Source: a virus
Lineage: Duplodnaviria; Heunggongvirae; Uroviricota; Caudoviricetes
IMG/VR virus record: IMGVR_UViG_2636415673_000006
Length of the DNA stretch: 44,007 nucleotides
Reading direction: 5' to 3' (one strand)
The notes beneath the pieces are model-generated. The model saw only the letters and a list, made by a program, of their open reading frames with translations, did no database searches and was not told the DNA's origin. Below, in pieces: positions 1-41,520 of this stretch (position 1 is its first letter; every line of letters starts with the position of its first letter). The position numbers were made by a program, and so were the translations under genes.

Positions 1-525
1 TCACTAGATTCTGACGATTTCCAGAAGGGAGATTCAGCAGGCCAGCATCTGTAATCATTCAGATTTGCTGGCTTGCTGCTAAATATGGTTGCTAAGAAAA
101 ATAGCAGGCCAGTAATTTATTCAGATTACTGAATATAATAATTTTTCAGGAACGGTTATGCTGAAGGTAGTATGTTTAATCGACACAATTATTTGCTGAG
201 TCTAATATGAGGTGACATTTTTATGATCACTGACCAGCAAGACTGACCCGTATTGATTAGCCTGATTATTGGCAACTTATTGGGGTAGTCATTTTGACAT
301 CGAATGGGGGAGGTTTCCAGTTAAGTTCACGAATGCATGATGATTTGCGTTCACATATCGAAGTACTGGTTGACTATACTAAGGATTTTAAGATAACTCA
401 CTGATTGTAAGTGGGTTATTGCGAGGGGGATGATAAATGGTGTCCCCTGCAGACATCTACTTGAGGATGCAGGGGATTGATTGGAATGGTATTTTTGGTA
501 TGTGAAAAATATTTTACTCGCTATT

Positions 526-726
526 TTACCCATTGGCGCGGCTTAAGAGCTTATTTTTGAATTCACAATGGTCACGATATAACCATCTTGCTCGCCCGTG
601 GATAACTTTGGCTTTTGGCAGGTCGCCGGACTTAATCCGGTCGTAGATGAAGGTTTTACCGAAGCCAGTATCAGCCATGATGAATTTCAAATCAACCAGT
701 GAATCAGGTTGTAGTTCGTGTTGCAT
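526..726 (-). CDS. Excisionase-like / AlpA-family HTH DNA-binding protein (putative Xis)
   Basis: 66-aa ORF with HTH-like core (DLKFIMADTGFGKTFIYDRIKSGDLPKAKVIHGRARWLY) typical of AlpA/Xis-type excisionases; last gene of the leftward early operon; RBS GGAGA before the ATG. Confidence 0.55.
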   Translation of the reverse strand: MQHELQPDSLVDLKFIMADTGFGKTFIYDRIKSGDLPKAKVIHGRARWLYRDHCEFKNKLLSRANG

Positions 727-3659: not shown

Positions 3660-4724
3660 TTAAGTTGATTCCAGACTTCCTTTGGTAAAAGCTTGTATCA
3701 GTCTGTTTGCTGCTGCTTTCTGCGCTGCCACATTGGCAATAACAGATAGTTTTTCCTGGCTGGCTTTCGTGCAGATCCCCGCCCAGTTATCCATCAGAAA
3801 AAAATCCTCTCTTTCTGCAGAGCTGGTAGTTGCACATAGTTTTTCGATCATAGAAGTTATTTCTGCGATGGAATGATTAACCATCATCTGTTGAACCGCA
3901 AAACCGAAAGCGTTAATCATTACTCCATGGAACTGAATATAATCGCGCTTGTACGTAGCGTGGTGTACACCATGTCGGATTGAGTCAATCTGAGTTAGTG
4001 TAATCCATGCCTCCCAGACAGATTCTATATATCCCATTTCAAGTTGTTGATTGCCGTTCCTGGCGAACTTTGACGTTGCATCAGTGAGTGCCTTGAAACT
4101 CACCCACATATTACTTTTTAATGGCACTACGTTGTGTTCAAAATCGGTTATATCGGCAAATACAGTATGTTGGGTCAGGAAGGATATCATTCCCTGAGCA
4201 ATATCATCCCGGCCGTTATACGCCATATTGATGGTCGCTGATGGCTTAGAAACGTTGTTATTTATGTCCGAAAAGAACTGCTGCCGGGTTTTTAGCGGCA
4301 GATTCATTGTAAGCATCATGGGAACCATGAGCGTTGATGGGGAACTTCGGCAAAATATCTCAATGCCAGCTGCACGATGTTGACCATCAAAAAGTTTTAT
4401 TTCGGCGTCGAGGGGAATTCTGGCTATACCAACATTTGTGTTGCCAAACGGTACAAATTCTATATTCGAATCACAGTTACCTACGAGAGGGGGAATGATA
4501 AAAGGCTCATTTCTTGAGTCTGCGTTAGTGAGATAATTTAAAAATTTTCGTACTCGATTTGGATTAATTTCTCGCTGAGAGCGTTCCAGTGTATGGCCGT
4601 AATTATCTGAAGCGAGGAAACGAGCCAGCGATCTTCCTGGTATGGTAAGGAAGAGTGTAACAGTACCACCCTGTACACCTTGCGATGCCGGAAATTCGAA
4701 TGAATGATTACCAACCTGACTCAT
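3660..4724 (-). CDS. DGQHR-domain protein (DndB/DpdB-like, ParB-like fold)
   Basis: 354-aa ORF containing the exact DGQHR signature (KLFDGQHRAAGIE) about 120 residues from the N-terminus, as in DndB/DpdB family proteins. Confidence 0.75.
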   Translation of the reverse strand: MSQVGNHSFEFPASQGVQGGTVTLFLTIPGRSLARFLASDNYGHTLERSQREINPNRVRKFLNYLTNADSRNEPFIIPPLVGNCDSNIEFVPFGNTNVGIARIPLDAEIKLFDGQHRAAGIEIFCRSSPSTLMVPMMLTMNLPLKTRQQFFSDINNNVSKPSATINMAYNGRDDIAQGMISFLTQHTVFADITDFEHNVVPLKSNMWVSFKALTDATSKFARNGNQQLEMGYIESVWEAWITLTQIDSIRHGVHHATYKRDYIQFHGVMINAFGFAVQQMMVNHSIAEITSMIEKLCATTSSAEREDFFLMDNWAGICTKASQEKLSVIANVAAQKAAANRLIQAFTKGSLEST

Positions 4725-6715: not shown

Positions 6716-7006
6716 TTAGTGATTCAGGCCGTTACCGCGTCCGTCGAGAAAAACTTCCACGAGCAAATCACGGGTATAAGTGCGCTCGATGCCGCGATGC
6801 AGATAAAGCCGTCCGCGTAAATTAGCTGATGCAGTCCAGGTACCATCTTTGTGTTTGACCAGCATTCCTGGCATGACCGCACCTCGATTAACGGTCTGCG
6901 TTCCATAATGTTGATGAACCATAAAAACTCCTGCCCGTAAGCTGGGCTGCTGAACATATAGAGACTTCTGCGCGTATTCAGGCGGTGGATGGCCGCCGGT
7001 TGTCAT
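6716..7006 (-). CDS. Early-left protein in the kil position (possible Kil-like host-division inhibitor)
   Basis: 96-aa ORF with RBS (gagg) before the ATG; first gene leftward of the putative OL/pL region. Function is by position only. Confidence 0.35.
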
Positions 7007-7195
7007 AACTAAGCCGCCTCGTTGAAGCGACTAAGGTATGAAATGTTGAGTTAATTTCAGCTGGTCACACCGACGTTCACGCGTCCGTTTCACCCCTCGC
7101 ACTCCCCGAAGCCTGCTGAAATTCAAACTGCGGATCTAAGCGGTCATCGCAACGGTGAATCAGGTAGTTGCCGTATCGTTGTGTTGTTGCGATGA

Positions 7196-7250
7196 ACTTA
7201 TTTAAAACTATAGTTGTTTTATCGTCAACAACAAAAGTTGTTTTATTGGC
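7196..7250. promoter_or_regulatory. Candidate OL operator cluster / pL region
   Basis: Clustered imperfect palindromes built on AACAAC/GTTGTT half-sites (aaaactatagttgtttt, caacaacaaaagttgtttt) that resemble the sites between cI and cro. Confidence 0.35.
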
Positions 7251-7373
7251 TGTTTTAGATATAACTGGTTGTATTTAGGATGGATTTATTTTGTGACTTG
7301 AATCGCATAGCGATAACTGAAGCGAGGTTATGGTGGTTTTTTTAACGGTGTGTGTGATGAGGGGAGGGCAAAA

Positions 7374-7402
7374 GAAAACCCGGCACGGTGACCGGGATTC
7401 TT
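7374..7402 (-). terminator. Rho-independent terminator downstream of the repressor gene
   Basis: Minus strand cccgg-tcaccgtg-ccggg followed by ttttctttt. Confidence 0.5.
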
Positions 7403-7517
7403 ACGCCGTTAGGTAAAGATATTATTGCGGTGGCTTAATATTACTACCTAGAGCAAAGATAGGAATTAGTTCTTTACTGAATGAGCACAATGCCCAGTTG
7501 ATAATTTTTAATTGGTA

Positions 7518-8207
7518 CTACCCATGCTTCCTATATGTCTGCGGCATGCTCCCAATAACCTTACCGAAGATGAACACCCGGTTCATCTCGTCTTTCTCGA
7601 TCGGGTCCCACGGTGAGTAGCTTTTGTTATCAGAGATGACCAGCAGCTTATCCTTCATCATTTGCAGGCGCTTTACATGGGCTGTGTCGTCGTACAGAAA
7701 CGCATAGATACCATCACCGTCGAAAGATTTAACTGTGATATCAACGAACAGCAGATCACCTGGTTCGATCGTTCCTGACATGCTGTCACCACGCACGTTA
7801 ATGATGCGGATATTTTCCGCCTTCCTACCATCGAACATGTGACGAGCATCGTCAAACGAGTACTCAACCGAGCGTAGAACTTCTACAAACTCACGGTTGA
7901 TGACTCCCGGCCCAGCACTGACTTCTATATCAAGAACGTCAATCTTGAAGTATTTGGAATGGCTGACAGTTGATTGTATTGGTTGCACTGTACTGTCTGA
8001 CATATTTCCAACGCCAGAAGATAACCATTCTGCGCGCACACCCAAAGCGTTCGCGATCTCCACGATTTTAGTTGTTTGATTAGCTTTCCCTGTTTCGATT
8101 TTCTGAATAGCAGCCTGGCTAACCCCGACCAAATCCCCAAGCGCCTTTTGTGTAAGGCCTCGCGCTAATCTGGCTTCTTTAAGTCTTTCTGAGAGTGTTG
8201 TTTTCAT
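7518..8207 (-). CDS. cI: CI-type prophage repressor (HTH_XRE + S24 LexA-like peptidase domain)
   Basis: N-terminal HTH (LSERLKEARLARGLTQKALGDLVGVSQAAIQKIETG) and C-terminal S24 motifs (GDSM...VKRL). Start placed at the internal Met (MKTTLSERL) at 8207; the track ORF extends to 8273. Confidence 0.85.
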   Translation of the reverse strand: MKTTLSERLKEARLARGLTQKALGDLVGVSQAAIQKIETGKANQTTKIVEIANALGVRAEWLSSGVGNMSDSTVQPIQSTVSHSKYFKIDVLDIEVSAGPGVINREFVEVLRSVEYSFDDARHMFDGRKAENIRIINVRGDSMSGTIEPGDLLFVDITVKSFDGDGIYAFLYDDTAHVKRLQMMKDKLLVISDNKSYSPWDPIEKDEMNRVFIFGKVIGSMPQTYRKHG

Positions 8208-8224
8208 AGTCCAAATGTACAACC

Positions 8225-8290
8225 AAGGTTTTATTCCATCAAACGAAAATGGTTGTTGACTAAAAACAACCATAGTTTTAATCTTGATTC
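8225..8290. promoter_or_regulatory. Candidate OR operators / divergent pRM-pR region
   Basis: Intergenic region between divergent cI and cro containing the palindrome atggttgtt-gactaaa-aacaaccat and a third half-site (acaaccaagg). Confidence 0.45.
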
Positions 8291-8311
8291 AAATTAACCA
8301 CGGAGGTTGTT

Positions 8312-8542
8312 ATGAACCCAGCTATCAAAACAGCGATCAATATCGTTGGTTCACAAAAGAAACTGGGCGCTGCTTGCGAAGTTTCACAGCAGGCCGTCTA
8401 TAAGTGGCTTCACAACAAAGCAAAGGTATCCCCTGAACATGTCGGCAGCATTGTTACGGCTACTGGTGGAGTAGTGAAGGCATACCAGATTCGCCCGGAT
8501 CTTCCGAAGTTGTTTCCACACACCGAAAAGAACGCAGCTTAA
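8312..8542 (+). CDS. cro: Cro-like HTH regulator (YdaS/Cro family)
   Basis: 76-aa ORF divergent from the repressor, RBS GGAGG, HTH-like core (GSQKKLGAACEVSQQAVYKWL). Confidence 0.7.
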   Translation: MNPAIKTAINIVGSQKKLGAACEVSQQAVYKWLHNKAKVSPEHVGSIVTATGGVVKAYQIRPDLPKLFPHTEKNAA

Positions 8543-8611
8543 ATTTCCATTTCACGCTCTTTAACAATAAGCAATCAACTTAACAGTCAATTCAAACTAA
8601 AGGAGTCAATT

Positions 8612-9151
8612 ATGCAACCACTTACATACCAACAGACTAGCGGATTTAGCCCGACTGCGGTGATAAATCGTTCTCAAACAAAACAGGTGCCAGGCCACGA
8701 AAAAATCCGTGATGCCGTCCGCGCCTGGTCGGCTGTAGATAATCAGGATGTCGTTGCCACACTCATTGTGAATGAGTATCGGGAGCAGGGCGGCGGCACC
8801 ATCGATTTCCCTGATGATGTCAGCCGTGCACGCCAGAAGCTGTTCCGCTTCCTCGATAACAAATTCGATTCTGAAAAATACCAAAATAACGTGCGTGAAC
8901 TGACCCCGGCAATTCTGGCGGTACTACCGCTGGAATATCGCGGTTACCTGGTTGAGCAGGATAGCTTCATGGCTCGGCTGGCTGAAATGGAAAAGGAACT
9001 CAGTGAGGCAAAGCAGGCGGTCATTCTCAACGCACCACGCCACCAGAAACTGAAGGAAATTAGTGAAGGTATTGTGTCGATGTTTCGTGTGGACCCAGAT
9101 CTGGCTGGTCCATTGATGGCGATGGTTACTACCATGCTGGGGGCGATATGA
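8612..9151 (+). CDS. YdaT-like protein in the cII position (putative regulatory protein)
   Basis: 179-aa ORF after cro with RBS AGGAG; positional analogue of cII. Family assignment by recollection only. Confidence 0.4.
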   Translation: MQPLTYQQTSGFSPTAVINRSQTKQVPGHEKIRDAVRAWSAVDNQDVVATLIVNEYREQGGGTIDFPDDVSRARQKLFRFLDNKFDSEKYQNNVRELTPAILAVLPLEYRGYLVEQDSFMARLAEMEKELSEAKQAVILNAPRHQKLKEISEGIVSMFRVDPDLAGPLMAMVTTMLGAI

Positions 9152-9237: not shown

Positions 9238-10167
9238 ATGGCAAACACTGCTGAGATATTCAATTTTCCAGTGCCGGATGCGGCACAAAAGGAGCCGCGC
9301 GTGGCAGATCTCGATGATGGTTATACGCGCATTGCAAATGAGTTGCTGGAAGCTGTGATGCTGACCGGATTAACACAGCACCAGCTTCTGGTCTTTCTGG
9401 CTGTCATGCGCAAAACATATGGCTTTAATAAAAGACTGGATTGGGTGAGCAACGAGCAACTTTCCGAATTGACCGGGATATTGCCGCACAAGTGTTCTGC
9501 TGCAAAAAGCGTTCTGGTAAAGCGTGGGATTCTTATTCAGAGCGGGCGGAATATCGGCATTAATAATGTGGTCAGTGAATGGTCAACATTACCCGAATCA
9601 GGTAAGAAAAATAAAGTTTACCTGAAAGAGGTAAATTTACCTGAATCAGGTAAGAAAAGTTTACCCAAATCAGGTAAAGGCGTTTACCCGAATCAGGTAA
9701 ACACAAAAGACAAACTAACAAAAGACAATATAAAACCTTTTTCGTCCGAGAATTCTGGCGAATCCTCTGACCAGCCAGAAAACGATCTTCCTGTGGTGAA
9801 ACCGGATGCTGCAATTCAGAGCGGCAGCAAGTGGGGGACAGCAGAAGACCTGACCGCCGCAGAGTGGATGTTTGACATGGTGAAGACTATCGCACCATCA
9901 GCCAGAAAACCGAATTTTGCTGGGTGGGCTAACGATATCCGCCTGATGCGTGAACGTGACGGACGTAACCACCGCGACATGTGCGTGCTGTTCCGCTGGG
10001 CATGCCAGGACAACTTCTGGTCCGGTAACGTGCTGAGCCCGGCCAAACTCCGCGATAAGTGGACCCAACTCGAAATCAACCGTAACAAGCAACAGGCAGG
10101 CGTGATAGCCAGCAAACCAAAACTCGACCTGACGAACACTGACTGGATTTACGGGGTGGAGCTATGA
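9238..10167 (+). CDS. O: Replication initiator O (lambda O family)
   Basis: N-terminus (ANTAEIFNF...VADLDDGYTRIANELLEA...KTYGFNK) parallels lambda O; contains the ori iterons internally. Start set at ATG 9238 with RBS gggagg; the track ORF begins at 9148. Confidence 0.85.
   Translation: MANTAEIFNFPVPDAAQKEPRVADLDDGYTRIANELLEAVMLTGLTQHQLLVFLAVMRKTYGFNKRLDWVSNEQLSELTGILPHKCSAAKSVLVKRGILIQSGRNIGINNVVSEWSTLPESGKKNKVYLKEVNLPESGKKSLPKSGKGVYPNQVNTKDKLTKDNIKPFSSENSGESSDQPENDLPVVKPDAAIQSGSKWGTAEDLTAAEWMFDMVKTIAPSARKPNFAGWANDIRLMRERDGRNHRDMCVLFRWACQDNFWSGNVLSPAKLRDKWTQLEINRNKQQAGVIASKPKLDLTNTDWIYGVEL
9589..9700. repeat. Origin iterons (ori-lambda type) inside the O gene
   Basis: Five ~19-bp direct repeats of consensus tttaccc(g/a)aatcaggtaa at about 23-bp spacing, followed by an A-rich tract (acacaaaagacaaactaacaaaagacaatataaaa). 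Confidence 0.8.
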
Positions 10168-10865
10168 AAAACATCGCCGCACAGATGGTTAACTTTGACC
10201 GTGAGCAGATGCGTCGGATCGCCAACAACATGCCGGAACAGTACGACGAAAAGCCGCAGGTACAACAGGTAGCGCAGATCATCAATGGTGTGTTCAGCCA
10301 GTTACTAGCAACTTTCCCGGCGAGCCTGGCTAACCGGGACCAGAACGAACTGAACGAAATCCGCCGCCAGTGGGTGCTGGCTTTCCGGGAAAACGGGATC
10401 ACCACAATGGAACAGGTTAACGCAGGAATGCGCGTAGCCCGTCGGCAGAATCGACCATTCCTGCCATCACCCGGGCAGTTTGTCGCCTGGTGCCGGGAAG
10501 AAGCATCCATTACCGCCGGGCTGCCAAACGCCAGCGAGCTGGTTGATATGGTTTACGAGTATTGCCGGAAGCGTGGCCTGTATCCGGACGCAGAGTCTTA
10601 TCCATGGAAATCGAACGCGCACTACTGGCTGGTTACCAACCTGTACCAGAACATGCGAGCCAATGCGCTGACTGACGCGGAATTACGGCGCAAGGCTGCC
10701 GATGAACTGACCTGTATGACAGCGCGAATTAACCGTGGTGAGGCTATACCTGAACCAGTAAAACAACTTCCTGTCATGGGCGGTAGACCTCTAAATCGTG
10801 CACAGGCTCTGGCGAAGATCGCAGAAATCAAAGCTAAGTTTGGGCTTAAAGGAGCAAGTGTATGA
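10164..10865 (+). CDS. P: Replication protein P (DnaB helicase loader)
   Basis: 233-aa ORF recognised as near-identical to lambda P (MKNIAAQMVNFDREQMRRIANNMPEQYDEKPQVQQ...). Confidence 0.95.
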   Translation: MKNIAAQMVNFDREQMRRIANNMPEQYDEKPQVQQVAQIINGVFSQLLATFPASLANRDQNELNEIRRQWVLAFRENGITTMEQVNAGMRVARRQNRPFLPSPGQFVAWCREEASITAGLPNASELVDMVYEYCRKRGLYPDAESYPWKSNAHYWLVTNLYQNMRANALTDAELRRKAADELTCMTARINRGEAIPEPVKQLPVMGGRPLNRAQALAKIAEIKAKFGLKGASV

Positions 10866-11164
10866 CGGGCAAAGAGGCAATTATTCATTACCTGGGGACT
10901 CATAAGAACTTCTGTGCGCAGGACGTTGCCGCGGTAACAGGCGCAACCGTAACCAGCATAAATCAGGCTGCGGCTAAAATGGCGCGGGCAGGAATCCTGG
11001 TCGTTGATGGTAAGGTCTGGCGAACGGTGTATTACCGGTTCGCTACCAGAGAAGAACGGGAAGGAAAGGTGAGCACGAATCTGATTTTTAAGGAGTGTCG
11101 CCAGAGTGCCGCGATGAAACGGGTATTGAGGGTATATAAAAGAACATCAATGGGTACACAATGA
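10862..11164 (+). CDS. ren: Ren exclusion protein
   Basis: MTGKEAIIHYLGTH...VTSINQAAAKMARAG matches lambda/DLP12 Ren; the C-terminus diverges where cargo follows. Confidence 0.85.
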   Translation: MTGKEAIIHYLGTHKNFCAQDVAAVTGATVTSINQAAAKMARAGILVVDGKVWRTVYYRFATREEREGKVSTNLIFKECRQSAAMKRVLRVYKRTSMGTQ

Positions 11165-11231
11165 TGAAACAGGTGAGTTGAGTTCAAACTGTAGTACAAT
11201 TCTCTCCAGTTTGAACAGGAAAGAATATGCT

Positions 11232-11564
11232 ATGAACCCTTATATTTATCTTGGTGGTGCAATACTTGCAGAGGTCATTGGTACAACCTTAATGAAGTTT
11301 TCAGAAGGTTTTACACGGTTATGGCCATCTGTTGGTACAATTATTTGTTATTGTGCATCATTCTGGTTATTAGCTCAGACGCTGGCTTATATTCCTACAG
11401 GGATTGCTTATGCTATCTGGTCAGGAGTCGGTATTGTCCTGATTAGCTTACTGTCATGGGGACTTTTCGGCCAACGGCTGGACCTGCCAGCCATTATAGG
11501 CATGATGTTGATTTGTGCCGGTGTGTTGGTTATTAATTTATTGTCACGAAGCACACCACATTAA
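11232..11564 (+). CDS. emrE: SMR-family multidrug efflux transporter EmrE
   Basis: 110-aa four-TM protein MNPYIYLGGAILAEVIGTTLMKFSEGFTRLW... recognised as E. coli EmrE. Start set at the internal ATG; the track ORF begins at 11178. Confidence 0.9.
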   Translation: MNPYIYLGGAILAEVIGTTLMKFSEGFTRLWPSVGTIICYCASFWLLAQTLAYIPTGIAYAIWSGVGIVLISLLSWGLFGQRLDLPAIIGMMLICAGVLVINLLSRSTPH

Positions 11565-11594
11565 AATAATTTGTTTCTAAACGACTAAAATATG

Positions 11595-11635
11595 GAGGCT
11601 CTTATATTTATATGAGCCTCGTTTTATGCTTTTTG
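11595..11635 (+). terminator. Rho-independent terminator after emrE
   Basis: gaggctc-ttatatttatat-gagcctc followed by gttttatgcttttt. Confidence 0.45.
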
Positions 11636-11818
11636 TTAATGTCTTTATTTTTTATGTATTCTTTTGTGCTTTCAAGATTATGGCGTAAGAAAATTGCAAT
11701 ACGATTATTGTTGTATATTCAAGATAATGTGACCTTAATTGTCTTTTTAAATAAAAATTAAACAAAAATTATATCCCACCACTAAGGTTTATAAAAGCAT
11801 ACGTTAGCAGGTGTCACC

Positions 11819-13345
11819 ATGAAAAAAGCCATAGCATATATGCGATTTTCATCACCAGGTCAGATATCTGGTGACTCATTAAACCGACAGAGAAGACTTA
11901 TTGCTGAATGGTTAAAGGTAAATAGTGATTATTATCTTGATACCATAACATATGAAGATTTAGGATTAAGTGCATTCAAAGGAAAGCATGCACAATCAGG
12001 AGCTTTTTCGGAATTTTTAGATGCTATAGAGCATGGTTATATATTGCCAGGAACTACATTGTTAGTTGAAAGTCTGGACAGACTTTCAAGAGAAAAAGTC
12101 GGTGAAGCGATTGAACGTCTGAAATTGATTTTGAATCACGGTATTGATGTTATAACTCTTTGCGACAATACAGTCTATAATATTGACTCTTTGAATGAGC
12201 CATATTCATTAATAAAAGCCATACTTATAGCACAAAGGGCAAATGAAGAAAGCGAGATAAAGTCAAGTCGGGTTAAATTATCATGGAAGAAAAAACGGCA
12301 GGATGCACTGGAATCAGGTACGATTATGACGGCGTCTTGTCCGAGATGGCTCTCATTGGATGACAAAAGAACGGCTTTTGTTCCAGACCCCGACAGGGTG
12401 AAAACTATTGAGCTAATTTTTAAACTCAGGATGGAAAGGCGCTCATTGAATGCAATAGCCAAGTATTTAAATGATCATGCTGTAAAGAATTTCTCAGGAA
12501 AAGAAAGTGCATGGGGACCTTCTGTAATTGAAAAATTATTAGCGAATAAAGCTCTGATAGGTATATGCGTACCTTCATATCGTGCAAGAGGGAAAGGGAT
12601 AAGTGAAATCGCTGGCTATTATCCCAGAGTCATATCAGATGATTTGTTTTACGCTGTACAGGAAATTCGGTTGGCACCTTTTGGTATTAGCAATAGTAGC
12701 AAGAATCCTATGCTAATAAATCTACTTCGAACAGTTATGAAGTGTGAGGCTTGTGGTAATACCATGATTGTTCATGCGGTATCTGGAAGTTTGCATGGCT
12801 ATTATGTTTGTCCGATGAGAAGATTACATCGATGTGACAGGCCATCAATAAAAAGAGATTTGGTTGATTATAATATCATTAATGAATTGCTTTTTAATTG
12901 TAGCAAAATTCAACCAGTTGAAAACAAGAAAGATGCTAATGAAACTTTAGAGTTAAAAATTATTGAGCTTCAGATGAAAATTAATAATTTAATTGCTGCA
13001 TTATCTGTTGCGCCTGAAGTTACCGCTATAGCAGAAAAAATCAGAGTATTAGATAAGGAATTACGAAGGGCTTCTGTATCATTAAAAACTTTGAAGAGTA
13101 AAGCGGTGAGCTCACTTGGTGATTTTCATGCTATTGACTTAACCAGTAAAAATGGGCGAGAGCTATGTCGTACACTTGCCTATAAAACATTCGAAAAAAT
13201 CATAATCAATACAGATAATAAAACCTGTGATATCTATTTTATGAATGGCATTGTTTTTAAACACTATCCTTTAATGAAAACAATATCCGCCCAGCAGGCG
13301 ATAAGTACTCTCAAATATATGGTTGATGGTGAGGTTTATTTTTGA
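11819..13345 (+). CDS. ybcK: Large serine recombinase (resolvase/invertase N-domain + recombinase domain + zinc ribbon), YbcK-like
   Basis: 508-aa ORF; N-terminal serine-recombinase motif (AIAYMRFSSPGQ...SLDRLSRE) and C-terminal Cys cluster (CEACGNTM...YYVCPMRRLHRC); AT-rich gene. Confidence 0.8.
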   Translation: MKKAIAYMRFSSPGQISGDSLNRQRRLIAEWLKVNSDYYLDTITYEDLGLSAFKGKHAQSGAFSEFLDAIEHGYILPGTTLLVESLDRLSREKVGEAIERLKLILNHGIDVITLCDNTVYNIDSLNEPYSLIKAILIAQRANEESEIKSSRVKLSWKKKRQDALESGTIMTASCPRWLSLDDKRTAFVPDPDRVKTIELIFKLRMERRSLNAIAKYLNDHAVKNFSGKESAWGPSVIEKLLANKALIGICVPSYRARGKGISEIAGYYPRVISDDLFYAVQEIRLAPFGISNSSKNPMLINLLRTVMKCEACGNTMIVHAVSGSLHGYYVCPMRRLHRCDRPSIKRDLVDYNIINELLFNCSKIQPVENKKDANETLELKIIELQMKINNLIAALSVAPEVTAIAEKIRVLDKELRRASVSLKTLKSKAVSSLGDFHAIDLTSKNGRELCRTLAYKTFEKIIINTDNKTCDIYFMNGIVFKHYPLMKTISAQQAISTLKYMVDGEVYF

Positions 13346-13456
13346 GTAATAATCACTTTTTCAACCGTGCTATAGTAAGAAAGTTAGGTAAGTACAATAA
13401 AATTATCTATCCTGAACGAAGCGTCCTGAGCTATGATTTTACTATAGGGACTGCCA

Positions 13457-13780
13457 ATGGATGCTGGCGTTCTCGTTCTAGCAGTTCAACAATCCCCAAT
13501 CACAAAACAATTCACTGATAACGAACTTTGCACACTCGCCTGGTTATGGCGAGCAGGGAATGTGATGTTAATTGCCTACCAGAACGTTACTCATCTTCTT
13601 CAGGATGCGGAGCATGGTGAAGCTGGTCACTTCACTTCCATCGAGCAAGAATATCCCCAGATACTCAACAGAGCGCGAGCAATCCTCGTCCGAGAAACGG
13701 CACATGTAAAACTTCAGCCGTGGCAGGATGATAAGTGGAGTCGAGTATTGCCGCATTTACCTCAGAATCTGTTTCAATAA
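13457..13780 (+). CDS. Hypothetical protein
   Basis: 107-aa ORF in the nin-region cargo; followed by a 10-bp perfect inverted repeat (cttccgtcat/atgacggaag) at 13799-13826. Confidence 0.4.
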   Translation: MDAGVLVLAVQQSPITKQFTDNELCTLAWLWRAGNVMLIAYQNVTHLLQDAEHGEAGHFTSIEQEYPQILNRARAILVRETAHVKLQPWQDDKWSRVLPHLPQNLFQ

Positions 13781-13954: not shown

Positions 13955-14737
13955 ATGGACAATATTAATAAACACGGGCTCTCAAGAAGAATACCTGAGA
14001 CAATAAAACGTCAGATAAGGCAAAGGTGCGGCTTTGGCTGTGTAATTTGTGGATTTGGATTTTATGATTATGAGCATTTTAAACCTGACTTCGTTGATGC
14101 CAAAGTACATGATCCGAATGGAATGACACTTCTTTGCTCCCAATGCAATCAAAAAAGAGCTCGTGGTAGACTTTCAGCACAGACAGTGGAAATAGCTGAC
14201 AGAAATCCCAAGTGCTTACAGGCTGGTTTTGCAAATGAAATGTTTGATTTTCATAATGAGCCTATAACAGTAAAATTTGCAGGAGTGACGTTTCATAACT
14301 GTCAAAATTTGATTGTAGTCAATGAACAACCCATTCTTTCTGTGAAACCTTCACCCATACCACATGGACCGATGCTTTTATCAGGAATTTTCTGTAATTC
14401 TATTGGTAAGGAGACTTTACTGATAGATGAAAATGAATGGAAAGCTAAATCAGACAATTGGGATGTGGAGTGTACCGGCCCGCGTATAACAATACGACGT
14501 GGGCCAGGAGAGTTTGCCCTCGTTCTAAAAATGGAACCTCCAACAGGATTGATTGTTGAGCGTCTTGATATGTTGTATGAAGGGGTCAGGATGAAAGGAG
14601 ATAAAGATCTGCTGGAAGTTTCGATTAATGGAGGTCCCTTGCACAGATGGCAATCATGCTCAATGTCAAATTGCCATACAGGGCTTGCGATTCAGGGCGG
14701 TATTAGAGCTGCTAATGATCCTTTGTATTGCGCCTAA
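13955..14737 (+). CDS. HNH-nuclease-domain protein with uncharacterised C-terminal domain
   Basis: 260-aa ORF; N-terminal HNH-like zinc-finger block (CGFGCVICG...YDYEH...NGMTLLCSQCNQKRARG); about 180 aa of unrecognised sequence follows. Confidence 0.55.
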   Translation: MDNINKHGLSRRIPETIKRQIRQRCGFGCVICGFGFYDYEHFKPDFVDAKVHDPNGMTLLCSQCNQKRARGRLSAQTVEIADRNPKCLQAGFANEMFDFHNEPITVKFAGVTFHNCQNLIVVNEQPILSVKPSPIPHGPMLLSGIFCNSIGKETLLIDENEWKAKSDNWDVECTGPRITIRRGPGEFALVLKMEPPTGLIVERLDMLYEGVRMKGDKDLLEVSINGGPLHRWQSCSMSNCHTGLAIQGGIRAANDPLYCA

Positions 14738-16952: not shown

Positions 16953-17477
16953 TTATTGTTTAACCCATAATAATTCATTGACATTGAATCCCAACTTTTG
17001 AGCGGTTCGCACATAGTCTGCTTTTACTTTATCTGGAATAGTTGGGGTCCTTGCCAGAATCCATAGGTATTCTCTGTTCGGACCACTGACAAGAGCATAC
17101 TTATACTCATCATCCAGTTTGATTACATTATAGCCACCATAGAAGGGGCCAAAAAACGAAACCTTCAACGCTGCAGTTTTAGTATCTCCAGTAAAGTATG
17201 CTTTACCTTCGCTCTCGCTCCATTTATTTTTCGTTGGATCGTATCCACGGTTAAGTACACGAATCCCTCCGTCGTTCCGTTTTCCATAGGTAGCGCTGAC
17301 CTGTTCCAGACCACGTTCGAACCGGTTCTCGAGGCGAGCTATTTCATACCATTTTCCGAGGTAGCGGTTGGCGTCAAAATTTGTAATCGGCTGCACACCT
17401 TTAGGTGGTGTCGGGGCCTTACATGCTATAAGAGTGAAAGAGAGTGCAATGCCAGTCAACACAGGCCATAACTTCAT
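16953..17477 (-). CDS. blc: Bacterial lipocalin Blc-like outer-membrane lipoprotein
   Basis: 174-aa ORF with lipobox (LIAC) and lipocalin signature (NFDANRYLGKWYEIARLENRFERG ... YLWILARTP), strongly resembling E. coli Blc. Confidence 0.85.
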   Translation of the reverse strand: MKLWPVLTGIALSFTLIACKAPTPPKGVQPITNFDANRYLGKWYEIARLENRFERGLEQVSATYGKRNDGGIRVLNRGYDPTKNKWSESEGKAYFTGDTKTAALKVSFFGPFYGGYNVIKLDDEYKYALVSGPNREYLWILARTPTIPDKVKADYVRTAQKLGFNVNELLWVKQ

Positions 17478-17669
17478 AATAAATCCTGTACTTTTGATAG
17501 TTGAGAGTAAGTATGAAAGATAGATGATTACGACCGATCACTTAAAGAACTTTCATACTATATTAGGAATAGTCTATAACAGAAAAATTGTCAGTGATGA
17601 CGCCAGAAAGGCAATTTATTCCGTGCACTACACAGTTTATGTGTTAATGAATTAGTCAAGGGGGAGAAT

Positions 17670-18629
17670 ATGATAAAAAAACCTGTGATTGGAATCAGCG
17701 GTTGTTTGGCCGGCTCTGCTGTTCGTTTTGATGGTGGTCACAAAAGAGCTGACTTTTTAATGGACAAATTAGTGGAATGGGTAACATTCAGACCAGTATG
17801 TCCGGAAATGGCTATAGGGCTGCCAGTTCCGCGTCCTGCTCTACGTCTTGTGCGCTCGACGCAAGGAAATATACGGATGTGTTTCAGCCACGACCAGAAT
17901 GAGGATGTGACAGAGAGAATGACAGAGTTTAGTCGTTCTTATATGGACAAATTAAAGGATGTATCGGGGTTTGTGGTTTGTGCTAAATCTCCCAGCTGTG
18001 GCATGGAGCGCGTGCGTGTCTATGATGAAAATGGTAATCGAGGTCGTAAAGATGGAGTGGGACTATTTACGAGCACTTTGATGGAAAAGTTTTCCTGGCT
18101 ACCGGTTGAAGAGGATGGGCGATTACATGATCCAGTGCTTCGTGAGAATTTTGTTGAAAGAGTTTTTGCTTTGCATGAGCTCAATCACCTTTACAAGGAG
18201 AAATTATCAAGAAGAGAGTTATTAGCTTTTCATAGTCGTTATAAGCTTCAGTTGTTGGCGCATAGTCAGGCAGGCTATAAAGATATGGGACCATTTGTGG
18301 CTGCAATACACGAGTGGGCGGACCTTGAATCATACTTTGAGGTGTATCGTGATAAGCTGATGGCGATTCTCAGAAAACCTGCATCACGTAAAAATCACAC
18401 GAATGTGCTGATGCATATACAGGGGTATTTTAGTAACTACTTAAGTACACGCCAGCGTAAAGAGTTGAGCGAGGTTATACTTAACTATCGTTCTGGCACA
18501 TTACCTCTTCTTGCGCCGTTGACTCTGCTGAAGCATTATCTGGGTGAGTATCCTAATGATTACTTGCTTACACAGAATTACTTCGCTCCCTATCCGGACG
18601 AACTGGCTCTAAGACTGATGGTAAATTAA
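17670..18629 (+). CDS. YbgA-like protein (DUF523/DUF1722 family)
   Basis: 319-aa ORF; N-terminus PVIGISGCLAGSAVRFDGGHK and domain organisation resemble E. coli YbgA; RBS GGGGGAG before the ATG. Confidence 0.6.
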   Translation: MIKKPVIGISGCLAGSAVRFDGGHKRADFLMDKLVEWVTFRPVCPEMAIGLPVPRPALRLVRSTQGNIRMCFSHDQNEDVTERMTEFSRSYMDKLKDVSGFVVCAKSPSCGMERVRVYDENGNRGRKDGVGLFTSTLMEKFSWLPVEEDGRLHDPVLRENFVERVFALHELNHLYKEKLSRRELLAFHSRYKLQLLAHSQAGYKDMGPFVAAIHEWADLESYFEVYRDKLMAILRKPASRKNHTNVLMHIQGYFSNYLSTRQRKELSEVILNYRSGTLPLLAPLTLLKHYLGEYPNDYLLTQNYFAPYPDELALRLMVN

Positions 18630-18971
18630 TTGTATGCGATATCATCCAAAAGGATGAGTTCCTGCATGCAAGATATTTACAATCGTAAAAACTACACTAT
18701 GATACCCAGAGTGTCAGTTTGTATAAAAACTCTGTTTACGCTGAAGAAACCATTGAGATGCAACTTAAAGTTGGTAAACATGCCAGTCAAAATATATAAT
18801 ATTATGATTCCACGCAGCTATATATAATATAACAGATTGGTTTAATAATTTGTCTTTGTGAGTTAAATACATAATTTTATACTTGTGATGCAATGAGATT
18901 TTCCTTATTGTTGAACTGGCGAATATTGATTTTCCACCTATACTTACCTGGTGTAACCCCAATGATATCAG

Positions 18972-19712
18972 GTGGATAATATGCCATACATATGTTCTAT
19001 CATTTTGGTGTTGAACTCGTTTGATGTCCGAATTGGTAAAGAAGATATTTTGTTTAAAAAAGGAAGTGCTGTTCTCATTGATTACAATTTAAAAGATTTT
19101 TTTTCATCAAATATAGATCATGTAATGATCGTAGATGTTGAAGAGAAAACAGTTAATGATTTCTTTAAAAGCAACACACTCTCACCTTTTTCTGTAAGAA
19201 GGTTTTATCCGGCATACTTGATGGTGGAATGTGAAGATTTTTCATTGTTAAAGAACTTGATTGCATGCTTGAATTGTGATGGCAGAACTGTGGATTTTGT
19301 TAGAAATCAAATATCACTTGCATGTCTTGCTATCTTATCTTCAGAGAAAATAGTGCAAAGTTTTTTATTTGGATGTCTTAATAGTTTAGGAAGTAAAGTT
19401 AAGGCTATTATTCACACGGATATATCTGCAGCATGGAGACTTTGTGATATATCTTCAAGACTGTATCTGAGTGAAAGTCTGTTAAAAAGAAAATTAAAGC
19501 ACGAAGGCTTATCATTTAGTAAGTTAATTCTTGAAGAGCGAATGGTGATGGCGGAAAGGTTATTAAGCTACAATTTATATTCTGTTGGAAAAGTTGCTGA
19601 GATATGCGGTTATGAAAACACGTCATATTTTGTAAGTGTTTTCAGAAGATATTTTGGTGTTCCTCCCCATCAATATTCATCAAGACTTTTTTTAGAAAAA
19701 GACATGATGTAA
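18972..19712 (+). CDS. AraC/XylS-family transcriptional regulator (AppY/EnvY/YbcM-like)
   Basis: 246-aa ORF with C-terminal AraC HTH (VGKVAEICGYENTSYFVSVFRRYFGVPPHQY); very AT-rich gene. Confidence 0.8.
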   Translation: MDNMPYICSIILVLNSFDVRIGKEDILFKKGSAVLIDYNLKDFFSSNIDHVMIVDVEEKTVNDFFKSNTLSPFSVRRFYPAYLMVECEDFSLLKNLIACLNCDGRTVDFVRNQISLACLAILSSEKIVQSFLFGCLNSLGSKVKAIIHTDISAAWRLCDISSRLYLSESLLKRKLKHEGLSFSKLILEERMVMAERLLSYNLYSVGKVAEICGYENTSYFVSVFRRYFGVPPHQYSSRLFLEKDMM

Positions 19713-19773
19713 CGTGATGCGTTTTAATGATTTTGTAATTTTCGTATTTAATAATTGTATGATGCTTTCAGCT

Positions 19774-19806
19774 ACGCCAGAATAATCGCTGGCGTTTTTC
19801 TTTTTG
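19774..19806 (+). terminator. Rho-independent terminator after the AraC-family gene
   Basis: cgccag-aataatc-gctggcg followed by tttttcttttt. Confidence 0.5.
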
Positions 19807-19900
19807 AATAGATGTTCAAGCCTTACGCTAATGTAACTTCTATACCTTTCCTCTTCGTTCCGAACCGTGTACACCATCCGTTATTTGCGGAGGTGAGGCT

Positions 19901-20116
19901 ATGAAATCCATGGATAAGTTAACAACGGGCATTGCCTACGGCACCTCCGCAGGCAGTGCTGGCTACTGGTTTTTACAGCTGCTCGATAAAGTCACGCCCT
20001 CACAGTGGGCAGCAATAGGTGTGCTGGGTAGCTTGGTATTTGGCTTGCTGACGTACCTGACAAACCTTTATTTCAAGATTAAAGAAGATAAGCGCAAGGC
20101 TGCGAGAGGTGAATAA
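19901..20116 (+). CDS. essD: Holin (phage-21 S-type pinholin, EssD-like) with dual-start motif
   Basis: 71-aa [29 protein letters not shown]... with two TM segments and a Met1/Met4 dual start. Confidence 0.85.
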
Positions 20117-20613
20117 TGCCTCCATCATTACGAAAAGCCGTTGCTGCTGCTATTGGTGGCGGAGCAATTGCTATAGCATCAGTGTTAATCACTGGCTCAA
20201 GTGGTAACGATGGTCTGGAGGGTGTCAGCTACATACCATACAAAGATATTGTTGGTGTATGGACTGTATGTCACGGGCATACAGGAAAAGACATCATGCT
20301 CGGTAAAACGTATACCAAAGCAGAATGCAAAGCCCTCCTGAATAAAGACCTTGCCACGGTCGCCAGACAAATTAACCCGTACATAAAAGTTGATATACCG
20401 GAAACAACGCGCGGCGCTCTTTACTCGTTCGTTTACAACGTGGGCGCTGGCAATTTCAGAACATCGACGCTTCTTCGCAAAATAAACCAGGGCGATATCA
20501 AAGGCGCATGTGATCAGCTACGTCGCTGGACATATGCTGGCGGTAAGCAATGGAAAGGTCTCATGACTCGTCGTGAGATTGAGCGTGAAATCTGTTTGTG
20601 GGGTCAGCAATGA
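20116..20613 (+). CDS. rrrD: SAR endolysin (T4-lysozyme-like glycoside hydrolase, phage-21 R type)
   Basis: 165-aa ORF with N-terminal signal-anchor-release segment ([26 protein letters not shown]) and lysozyme-like body. Confidence 0.85.
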
Positions 20614-40891: not shown

Positions 40892-41296
40892 ATGAATGAT
40901 ATCTATGCAGTTGTTGATAATAACGTTGTTATTAATGTCATTATCTGGGACGGAATTTCTGAATGGAAACCAGAGGCTGGTAATTTAGTTCCGTTAAACG
41001 GCGATGCTGGCATCGGTTGGTCATATTCAGACGGAGTATTTACCGCGCCACCTCCCCCAGAACGCTCTCACAACGCGTTAGTTGCGGAGGCTGAGCTGCA
41101 GAAATCAGCACTACTGACCGTAGCAAATAACACAATAGCACCGCTGCAGGATGCCGTTGATTTGGAAATGGCGACAGACGATGAACAGGCGTTACTGCTG
41201 GCGTGGAAAAAATACAGGGTGCTGCTGAACCGTGTTGATACCTCAGCGGCACCCGAAATAGAGTGGCCTACGCAACCGGGGGAGCGGGCCAGTTGA
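40892..41296 (+). CDS. Tail fibre assembly protein (Tfa)
   Basis: 134-aa ORF with the conserved Tfa C-terminus ([26 protein letters not shown]). Confidence 0.7.
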
Positions 41297-41520
41297 TATC
41301 AGGCGCAGCGTCAGCATCAACTGCTGTCACTGCGTCGATGTAGTCGAGTACCGCATTCAGCCGCGTTTTTTCATCATCAGTCAGTTTGCGGCCTGCACTT
41401 CTCCGTTGGCATCTTTGTTATATGGTACAACTGCGCAGAGGCCTGTCTCTTCAATTGTGCCAGTTGAATACTACGATACAACGCTCGGCCTTCCTGTTTG
41501 GTGGAACATAACCACATCCA
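41278..41520 (-). pseudogene. Remnant of a second, inverted tail-fibre assembly gene (5'-truncated and frameshifted)
   Basis: Minus-strand hand translation gives ...[46 protein letters not shown]-stop, with an upstream out-of-frame piece ...RALYRSIQLAQLKRQASAQL; both parallel the Tfa C-terminal consensus. No start codon; converges on and overlaps the plus-strand Tfa 3' end. Confidence 0.5.

Follow-up and report, generated by a model that had tools for sequence, protein, structure and literature searches.

The phage serine integrases SprA of SPbeta, Bxb1 gp35, PhiC31 Int and Listeria A118/LI Int are large serine recombinases (LSRs), each being the sole integrase of its phage and encoded beside attP at the prophage end. 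Two further groups of serine recombinases lend themselves to comparison: TnpX (Tn4451) and TndX (Tn5397), which are LSR transposases of elements that combine the LSR with a small resistance-type cargo in a compact low-GC unit, and the Gin/Cin/Pin invertases (Mu, P1, e14, Rac and Qin), which are proteins of ~190 aa with a C-terminal helix-turn-helix and flanking inverted gix sites. Here the analysis was focused on an LSR gene annotated ybcK in a 44,007-nt stretch of Caudoviricetes DNA (IMG/VR record IMGVR_UViG_2636415673_000006, hereafter the window), which corresponds to positions 1030912–1074918 of E. coli LSC52 (NZ_CM137002.1), from which the RefSeq annotation was read. The gene encodes an intact LSR, forms a discrete inserted cassette of ~2 kb that is fixed in position, and is not the integrase of the prophage that carries it. 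We read YbcK, with a probability of about 0.45, as a functional accessory phage-borne recombinase cassette of integrase ancestry, predicted to be kept for its action on DNA sites, and take the position that it is neither a second attachment system in current use nor an invertase nor a dead relic.

The closest described counterpart is YbcK of E. coli K-12 (b0544, UniProt P77698), a “putative recombinase” of the cryptic prophage DLP12, which is the same gene with ~98% nt identity and an equal length of 508 aa. The gene order ren-emrE-ylcJ-ybcK is common to both, whereas the cargo 3′ of ybcK consists of a truncated P22AR gene and a 260-aa gene in the window and of ybcL-ybcM in K-12, and the host prophage is complete, located at argW and provided with a Mu-like tail in the window but defective and located at argU in K-12. 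Among 5426 complete E. coli genomes, ybcK was present in 1424 (median one copy) and near full length in 1398 of these, almost all at 95–99% identity, and genomes commonly showed 2–6 places matching the ybcK region of the window. The gene was also found in 12 deposited lambdoid phage genomes with ~98% protein identity, of which the one inspected, phage Perceval, carries the same block along with its own tyrosine integrase and excisionase. In the E. coli genomes and the deposited phages alike, emrE was always directly upstream of ybcK. Much of this is already known, in that ybcK is annotated, LSRs are a familiar kind of enzyme and the K-12 annotation already shows ybcK together with a tyrosine integrase. 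The three LSR domains of YbcK have been remarked upon (PMC6637259), the gene has been catalogued as a predicted recombinase (PMC9504249), in K-12 it is kept silent by a Rho/NusG-dependent terminator located in its untranslated leader (PMC4150792) and, in BL21, sabinene tolerance was raised by its overexpression and lowered by its deletion (PMC7181518). The present analysis adds the precise limits of the cassette, a measure of the selection on the gene, negative evidence as to mobility and inversion, and a family context that includes a readable hofB att system.

A preliminary description of this DNA, made from the sequence by itself, had proposed a 508-aa LSR with a zinc-ribbon domain, and this was confirmed by three Pfam domains, a set of four cysteines and the predicted fold. 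The Pfam matches were Resolvase (PF00239, aa 4–161, 8e-19), Recombinase (PF07508, aa 191–284, 2e-14) and Zn_ribbon_recom (PF13408, aa 302–357, 8e-8), and the PHROG match was phrog 95 “integrase” (2e-119). An AlphaFold2 model generated from a 60-sequence alignment, with a mean predicted local distance difference test (pLDDT) score of 83, gave the domain boundaries listed in Table 1. In a Foldseek search of the PDB, the top matches of this model were full-length serine integrases, with SPbeta SprA (9dxd, E 6e-19) as the best and full-length complexes of Bxb1 (9iu2) and PhiC31 (9tep, 9rah) also retrieved, E values ranging from 6e-19 to 1e-6; the part comprising the N-terminal and recombinase domains matched PhiC31 4bqq. 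Using phmmer, the single YbcK sequence gave no match in the PDB, and the family profile recovered SprA (1e-10) together with the catalytic domain of TP901-1. In the profile alignment, the nucleophile motif Y-M-R9-F-S11 of YbcK (in general form Y-x-R9-F-S11) aligned with R-V-S12 of TP901-1. Alignments of 17 and 60 family members, extending down to ~30% identity, showed that R9, S11, Q15, R23, D87, R88, R91 and E144 are invariant and that at least 90% of the sequences retain the zinc-ribbon cysteines C309, C312, C331 and C339. As the catalytic Ser11 is present and invariant, the LSR assignment stands. YbcK shares the full-length architecture, predicted fold, Ser-Arg-Asp set and Cys4 zinc ribbon plus coiled coil of SprA, Bxb1 gp35, PhiC31 Int and A118/LI Int, although its identity to these integrases is only 14–21%. 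With all defining domains and the catalytic and zinc residues in place, YbcK is an intact LSR, and we infer that it catalyses recombination in the manner standard for serine integrases.

The prophage has an integration system of its own. The intS gene lies at one end of the window (Table 1), where it is directly followed in the RefSeq order by tRNA-Arg (argW) and then yfdC, and torI, encoding a recombination directionality factor (RDF) of the excisionase type, lies at the opposite prophage end. IntS and TorI at argW, in the layout of KplE1/CPS-53, fully account for the position of the prophage. Because these two proteins perform both integration and excision, YbcK has no part in either and is not the integrase of this prophage. 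The presence of two recombinase types in one phage, as stated in the preliminary description, was thus verified, with the correction that Int and Xis do not form one adjacent module. The comparison with SprA, Bxb1 gp35, PhiC31 Int and A118/LI Int also differs in this respect, since ybcK is internal and accompanied by a tyrosine Int/Xis pair, and no att site or RDF was found for it.

The region covering ~11000–13500 shows a GC content of 0.35–0.37 against ~0.5 on either side. In DLP12-like prophages without the island, homology stops at ~11128–11137, at the 3′ end of ren, and resumes at ~14748, just before ylcH/ybcN. This ren-ninB interval is a variable cargo slot, occupied in other strains by DUF4041, HEPN, a full-length P22AR gene, a hydrolase or ybcL-ybcM. 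The limits of the ybcK unit were obtained from a chromosomal island, fliE-emrE-ybcL-ybcM, that is devoid of ybcK: the alignment of K-12 DLP12 with this island extends to 2 bp past the emrE stop and recommences 155 bp 5′ of ybcL, and between these points K-12 has 2088 bp (ylcJ, ybcK and 309 bp of 3′ flank, GC 0.34) and the island 11 bp, AATAATCATCC. The comparison of 2088 bp with 11 bp defines the ybcK unit as a discrete indel with its left edge at window position 11567. An AATAAT-like motif at both cassette ends and at the empty site is weak evidence. On the right-hand side, the 3′ flanks of the window and K-12 are ~65% similar over the first ~85 bp and then unrelated; only two deep 3′-flank lineages of ybcK were found, both phage DNA, and the O157 arrangement is derived from the window/Perceval type by deletion. 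A promoter and terminator scan remained at chance level. Altogether, ybcK is a discrete inserted low-GC cassette of ~2 kb, fixed in position, and the low GC and clean 2088-bp indel agree with the earlier suggestion that the recombinase had arrived as part of an inserted element.

A single fixed junction 3′ of ybcK that captures varied cargo was considered and rejected, the right-hand breakpoints being scattered (13354, 13396, 13557, 13630, 13760 and 13831, one of which corresponds to an insertion sequence (IS) insertion) and the flanks falling into the two deep lineages. The chromosomal island (NZ_CP016546.1, locus 7002–9144), present in 2628 of the 5426 E. coli genomes, is the exact counterpart of the DLP12 ren-ninB cargo minus ybcK, with no other phage genes near and an IS200/TnpB element downstream. 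Within the cargo slot of the window, a 260-aa protein encoded at 13955–14737 (+) contains N-terminal CxxC motifs and a weak HNH match (phrog_6544), had no Pfam or PADLOC match, and may be the product of a defence or exclusion gene. PADLOC returned nothing for YbcK or its neighbours and Rfam nothing in the ybcK region.

Table 1. Features of the window and domains of YbcK; gene positions are window coordinates, domain positions are aa residues.
Feature	Position	Strand	Basis or remark
torI, excisionase-type RDF	526..726	-	RefSeq annotation
ren	10862..11164	+	Left edge of the variable cargo slot falls within its 3′ end
emrE, small multidrug resistance (SMR) efflux pump	11232..11564	+	Always 5′ of ybcK; also found without ybcK in the chromosomal island
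ybcK cassette, 5′ part	11567..11818	+	AT-rich leader, ylcJ and hairpin at ~11593–11619; left boundary 3 bp past the emrE stop
ylcJ, small open reading frame (ORF)	11612..11761	+	In the ybcK leader
ybcK, LSR, 508 aa, ATG start	11819..13345	+	Pfam, PHROG, alignments, AlphaFold2 model, Foldseek
ybcK cassette, 3′ flank of the window lineage, ~112 bp	13346..13457	+	Ends at the start of the truncated P22AR gene
P22AR-C antirepressor-like remnant, 107 aa	13457..13780	+	5′-truncated from a 202-aa gene; abuts the cassette
intS, P4-type tyrosine integrase, 385 aa	42850..44007	-	PRK09692 1e-70 (P4/IntS-type model); RefSeq intS
YbcK catalytic domain	~1-125		AlphaFold2 model
YbcK long helix E	128-166		AlphaFold2 model
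YbcK recombinase domain (RD), helical	~178-290		AlphaFold2 model
YbcK small beta zinc-ribbon	~300-345		Model and alignment
YbcK two-helix coiled coil	~346-428		AlphaFold2 model
YbcK C-terminal beta domain	444-508		AlphaFold2 model

Selection on ybcK was assessed across 84 phage or prophage contexts (80 IMG/VR loci, K-12, Perceval and two genomes). The gene was intact in 83 of them, and its 46 distinct alleles gave a median pairwise ratio of nonsynonymous to synonymous substitutions (dN/dS) of 0.07. The corresponding pooled polymorphism ratio (pN/pS) was 0.080, the lowest among 8 neighbouring genes, as compared with 0.091 for the replication gene P, 0.14 for emrE, 0.16 for ybcN, 0.17 for ren and 0.40 for the truncated P22AR remnant, which was disrupted in 12 of 45 copies. 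As the most constrained gene in its neighbourhood, almost always intact, ybcK cannot be called a relic in decay; its catalytic and zinc residues are moreover kept down to 30% identity, and the word “relic” in the preliminary description is not supported. ylcJ, annotated as a small protein in K-12, gave a pN/pS of ~2 across the phage copies, and any constraint on its region more probably concerns the function of ybcK leader and Rho-loading site than an encoded protein.

Homologues of YbcK with 505–541 aa and 37–61% identity are common in Enterobacterales, and the family includes genuine integrases. In Serratia fonticola, Leclercia tamurae, Mixta tenebrionis and Rahnella inusitata, an LSR of 541 aa that is 39% identical to YbcK splits the host gene hofB, encoding an ATPase of the type II secretion system/type IV pilus (T2SS/T4P) kind. 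The LSR gene starts 52 bp from the junction that divides hofB at codons ~310/311, and the second hofB half lies 7.3–10.2 kb away (junctions at ~9948–10001 and 17239–20121 in loci L031–L034). A GTNCTA core is found at both junctions, the island arms resemble the hofB arms, and the islands carry two AbiTii genes and a small resolvase. These 39%-identical relatives are true island integrases; they belong to the same LSR family as YbcK and can be aligned with it end to end, but the hofB enzymes adjoin a host junction and ybcK is without one. The attL, attR and inferred attP sites can be read in the hofB islands, with attP as ...GATGTGTAGTCCTA/ATTACAACTCTC... and attB within hofB codons ~305–315.

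The branches nearest YbcK recur as short single-gene cassettes, several of them in phages whose integration does not depend on them. A Pantoea dispersa LSR with 42% identity is located between the replication genes and Q in a prophage that encodes a tyrosine integrase of its own. An Atlantibacter LSR with 60% identity is found in the nin region, where the shared block begins 120 bp 5′ of the gene and one locus shows a partial DUF1367 duplication. Other relatives, from Ewingella, Erwinia, Yersinia and Atlantibacter, are positioned 3′ of tail-fibre or assembly genes; no inverted repeats were detected near these fibre genes, and tail-fibre inversion by the relatives was rejected on that ground. 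The Ewingella LSR unit (−62 to +405 around the gene) occurs in three flanks, one with a tyrosine integrase and two formed by different host genes, which argues against this LSR being the site-specific integrase of its prophages. An Atlantibacter copy lies 540 bp from the 3′ end of ssrA, and a search for tRNA or tmRNA near 25 YbcK-family loci found none. Plasmid-borne homologues were present in Pantoea and Duffyella. In Pantoea coffeiphila (L178, 11591–14500), a 1251-bp unit comprising a 62-aa ORF and an opposite-strand 142-aa ORF is repeated in ~3 tandem copies from 46 bp past the LSR stop. In Citrobacter koseri (L014, 6145–7826), within a conjugative-element-like region (TraD, MobA), a YbcK homologue is divergent from a PilV/Shufflon_N-like gene with a 5′ (CTTGTTT)n heptanucleotide tract.

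LSRs are typically integrases, relatives of YbcK integrate islands into hofB, and ybcK is under strong selection, all of which would be expected if the phage had a second means of attachment, with an attP beside ybcK giving access to a secondary attB in hosts where argW (argU in K-12) is already taken; occupied attB sites are frequent for lambdoid phages, and 2–6 places matching the ybcK region are common in E. coli genomes. However, the same emrE-ylcJ-ybcK 5′ junction was found in 1402 genomes as compared with 1424 having ybcK, that is in essentially every carrier, the block was collinear in all 84 contexts, the only two deep 3′-flank lineages are phage DNA, and in none of the 84 contexts was ybcK at a prophage boundary or beside host DNA, the gene being always internal. 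Attachment of the whole phage through YbcK is therefore improbable, and the second integration system envisaged in the preliminary description was not borne out by the natural variation. We regard it as similarly doubtful that the ~2-kb cassette is a selfish mini-element that still moves, excising as a circle and inserting into other phages or the emrE 3′ end. The clean indel, the AATAAT-like motif at its ends and at the empty site, and the similar-sized cassettes (gene plus short flanks) at different positions in Ewingella, Atlantibacter and Pantoea phages speak for such an element, and the link of ybcK to emrE in a compact low-GC unit resembles the TnpX/TndX elements. Unlike in these, emrE exists independently of ybcK and the indel spans ybcK only, no circular form, end motifs or multiple insertion sites were seen, and in place of the several target sites of LSR transposons there is a single insertion context in ~1400 genomes. 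One insertion site is used across E. coli, with a median of one copy per genome, and ~2600 genomes with a potential empty emrE/ybcL site never have it occupied. A synthetic “excised” junction used as query matched 2628 genomes, all with the diverged chromosomal type, so that no near-identical empty site is available. An immobile selfish gene should furthermore decay, yet the pN/pS is 0.08.

The conservation of an intact ybcK in the defective DLP12 of K-12 and the sabinene phenotypes in BL21 (PMC7181518) could point to a domesticated gene that serves the host or acts otherwise than by recombination, for instance in DNA binding, regulation or stress tolerance. This is a distinctly less probable explanation, as the family-wide invariance of the catalytic Ser/Arg/Asp argues that catalysis is selected, and the gene is Rho-silenced in K-12 and is also kept in deposited phage genomes. 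An inactive relic of an old insertion would account for the fixed position and for the lack of any activity or substrate on record, but is very hard to reconcile with 83 of 84 intact copies and with a pN/pS one-fifth of that of the adjacent, frequently disrupted truncated gene. The least credible alternative is that YbcK inverts or deletes DNA as a switch within the phage genome, with tail-fibre or cargo genes as possible targets. Gin/Cin/Pin and YbcK are all serine recombinases of E. coli prophages, several ybcK relatives lie directly 3′ of tail-fibre or assembly genes, and the window itself contains an inverted tail-fibre-assembly fragment at ~41268–41396; YbcK nevertheless has none of the attributes of the Gin/Pin type, being a 508-aa protein of LSR architecture with RD and zinc domains, no inverted repeats were found near the fibre genes of the relatives or around ybcK, and no orientation variants occur in the 84 contexts, so that the inversion system also raised in the preliminary description found no support.

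The accessory recombinase that we favour may be envisaged as follows. The cassette (leader/ylcJ, ybcK and a short 3′ flank) would descend from the enterobacterial LSR family with island-integrating members, would have been inserted once, directly after emrE, in the hypervariable ren-ninB slot of DLP12-type lambdoid phages, and would have travelled with this slot since. As in canonical serine integrases, a YbcK dimer would bind each of two sites of ~40–50 bp, and the resulting tetramer would make 2-bp staggered cuts via Ser11, followed by subunit rotation and strand religation. The reaction is probably one-way, because no RDF candidate is linked to ybcK: no conserved small partner gene was found and ylcJ is not constrained as a protein. 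YbcK would probably be made only while early transcription, antiterminated by N, continues across the nin region, since the Rho-dependent leader terminator shuts ybcK off in K-12 lysogens. Catalytic activity, expression timing and the existence of substrates are inferred properties of the enzyme.

Several results weigh against this interpretation. No substrate of YbcK emerged from searches covering repeats, dyads, presence/absence and inversion. Direct and inverted repeats around the emrE-ybcK block amounted to short chance-level matches, and the scores for dyad symmetry, computed for the leader, the two 3′ flanks and the empty site, did not rise above those of shuffled controls, LSR sites often being too weakly symmetric for such detection; the preliminary remark that flanking repeats were not obvious likewise holds. 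The 84 contexts contained no minus-strand high-scoring segment pairs (HSPs) of at least 100 bp and hence no inversion polymorphism, and neither presence/absence polymorphism nor recent precise excision was seen among DLP12-type prophages, where no full-length “empty” junction exceeded 87.8% identity. The cassette boundaries could stem from ordinary illegitimate recombination at gene borders, like those of other phage morons, and in the Ewingella relative the right cassette boundary is the stop codon of a small ORF. Purifying selection, for its part, is silent on which activity of YbcK is selected. The literature search returned no report of recombination activity of YbcK, and the sole phenotype found was sabinene tolerance on overexpression (PMC7181518). 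The top score of the dyad scan was a terminator hairpin. An inverted pair seen by eye at 13370–13447, CTATAGTAA...TTACTATAG, showed no compensating changes in the Perceval or K-12 lineages and was dropped.

A wider generalization, which we put forward as speculative and rather unlikely, is that YbcK-type LSRs make up a clade of accessory non-integrase recombinases maintained by strong selection for some function in the lytic cycle or among the early genes of enterobacterial lambdoid phages that own a tyrosine integrase. Such a clade could carry out site-specific recombination in one direction, with a site in the host, in a competitor prophage or in the cargo, for example the capture or exchange of cargo in the ren-ninB slot or the disabling of a resident element.

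Other regions of the window also contain features of note. A DGQHR-domain, DndB-like protein (PADLOC DndB, 4e-37) is encoded at 3660–4724 (-) in the early-left operon beside exo/bet/gam. Between Q and the lysis genes, the segment 16953–19712 (GC ~0.33–0.39) is a second cargo island with a lipocalin gene (-), a YbgA/DUF1722 gene and an AraC-type regulator. The segment 40892–41396 comprises a tail-fibre assembly gene and, after it, a fragment of such a gene in inverted orientation and lacking the N-terminal part, which looks like the remnant of an invertible fibre segment; no Gin/Pin-type invertase was found in the window.

As a known gene of a known family, ybcK does not constitute a discovery, and the present finding instead sharpens the question of what it does. 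An uncharacterised “y-gene” of K-12 that is present in about a quarter of complete E. coli genomes, always joined to emrE, encodes an LSR that is constrained like a replication gene and leaves no footprint of integration, excision or inversion, which points to a recombination reaction so far unseen. The YbcK sites, along with the relatives that target hofB and whose att sites can be read, would add a Gram-negative serine integrase to the genome-engineering toolbox. Locating these sites would explain a widespread phage accessory gene and could show how the cargo of the ren-ninB hotspot is exchanged.

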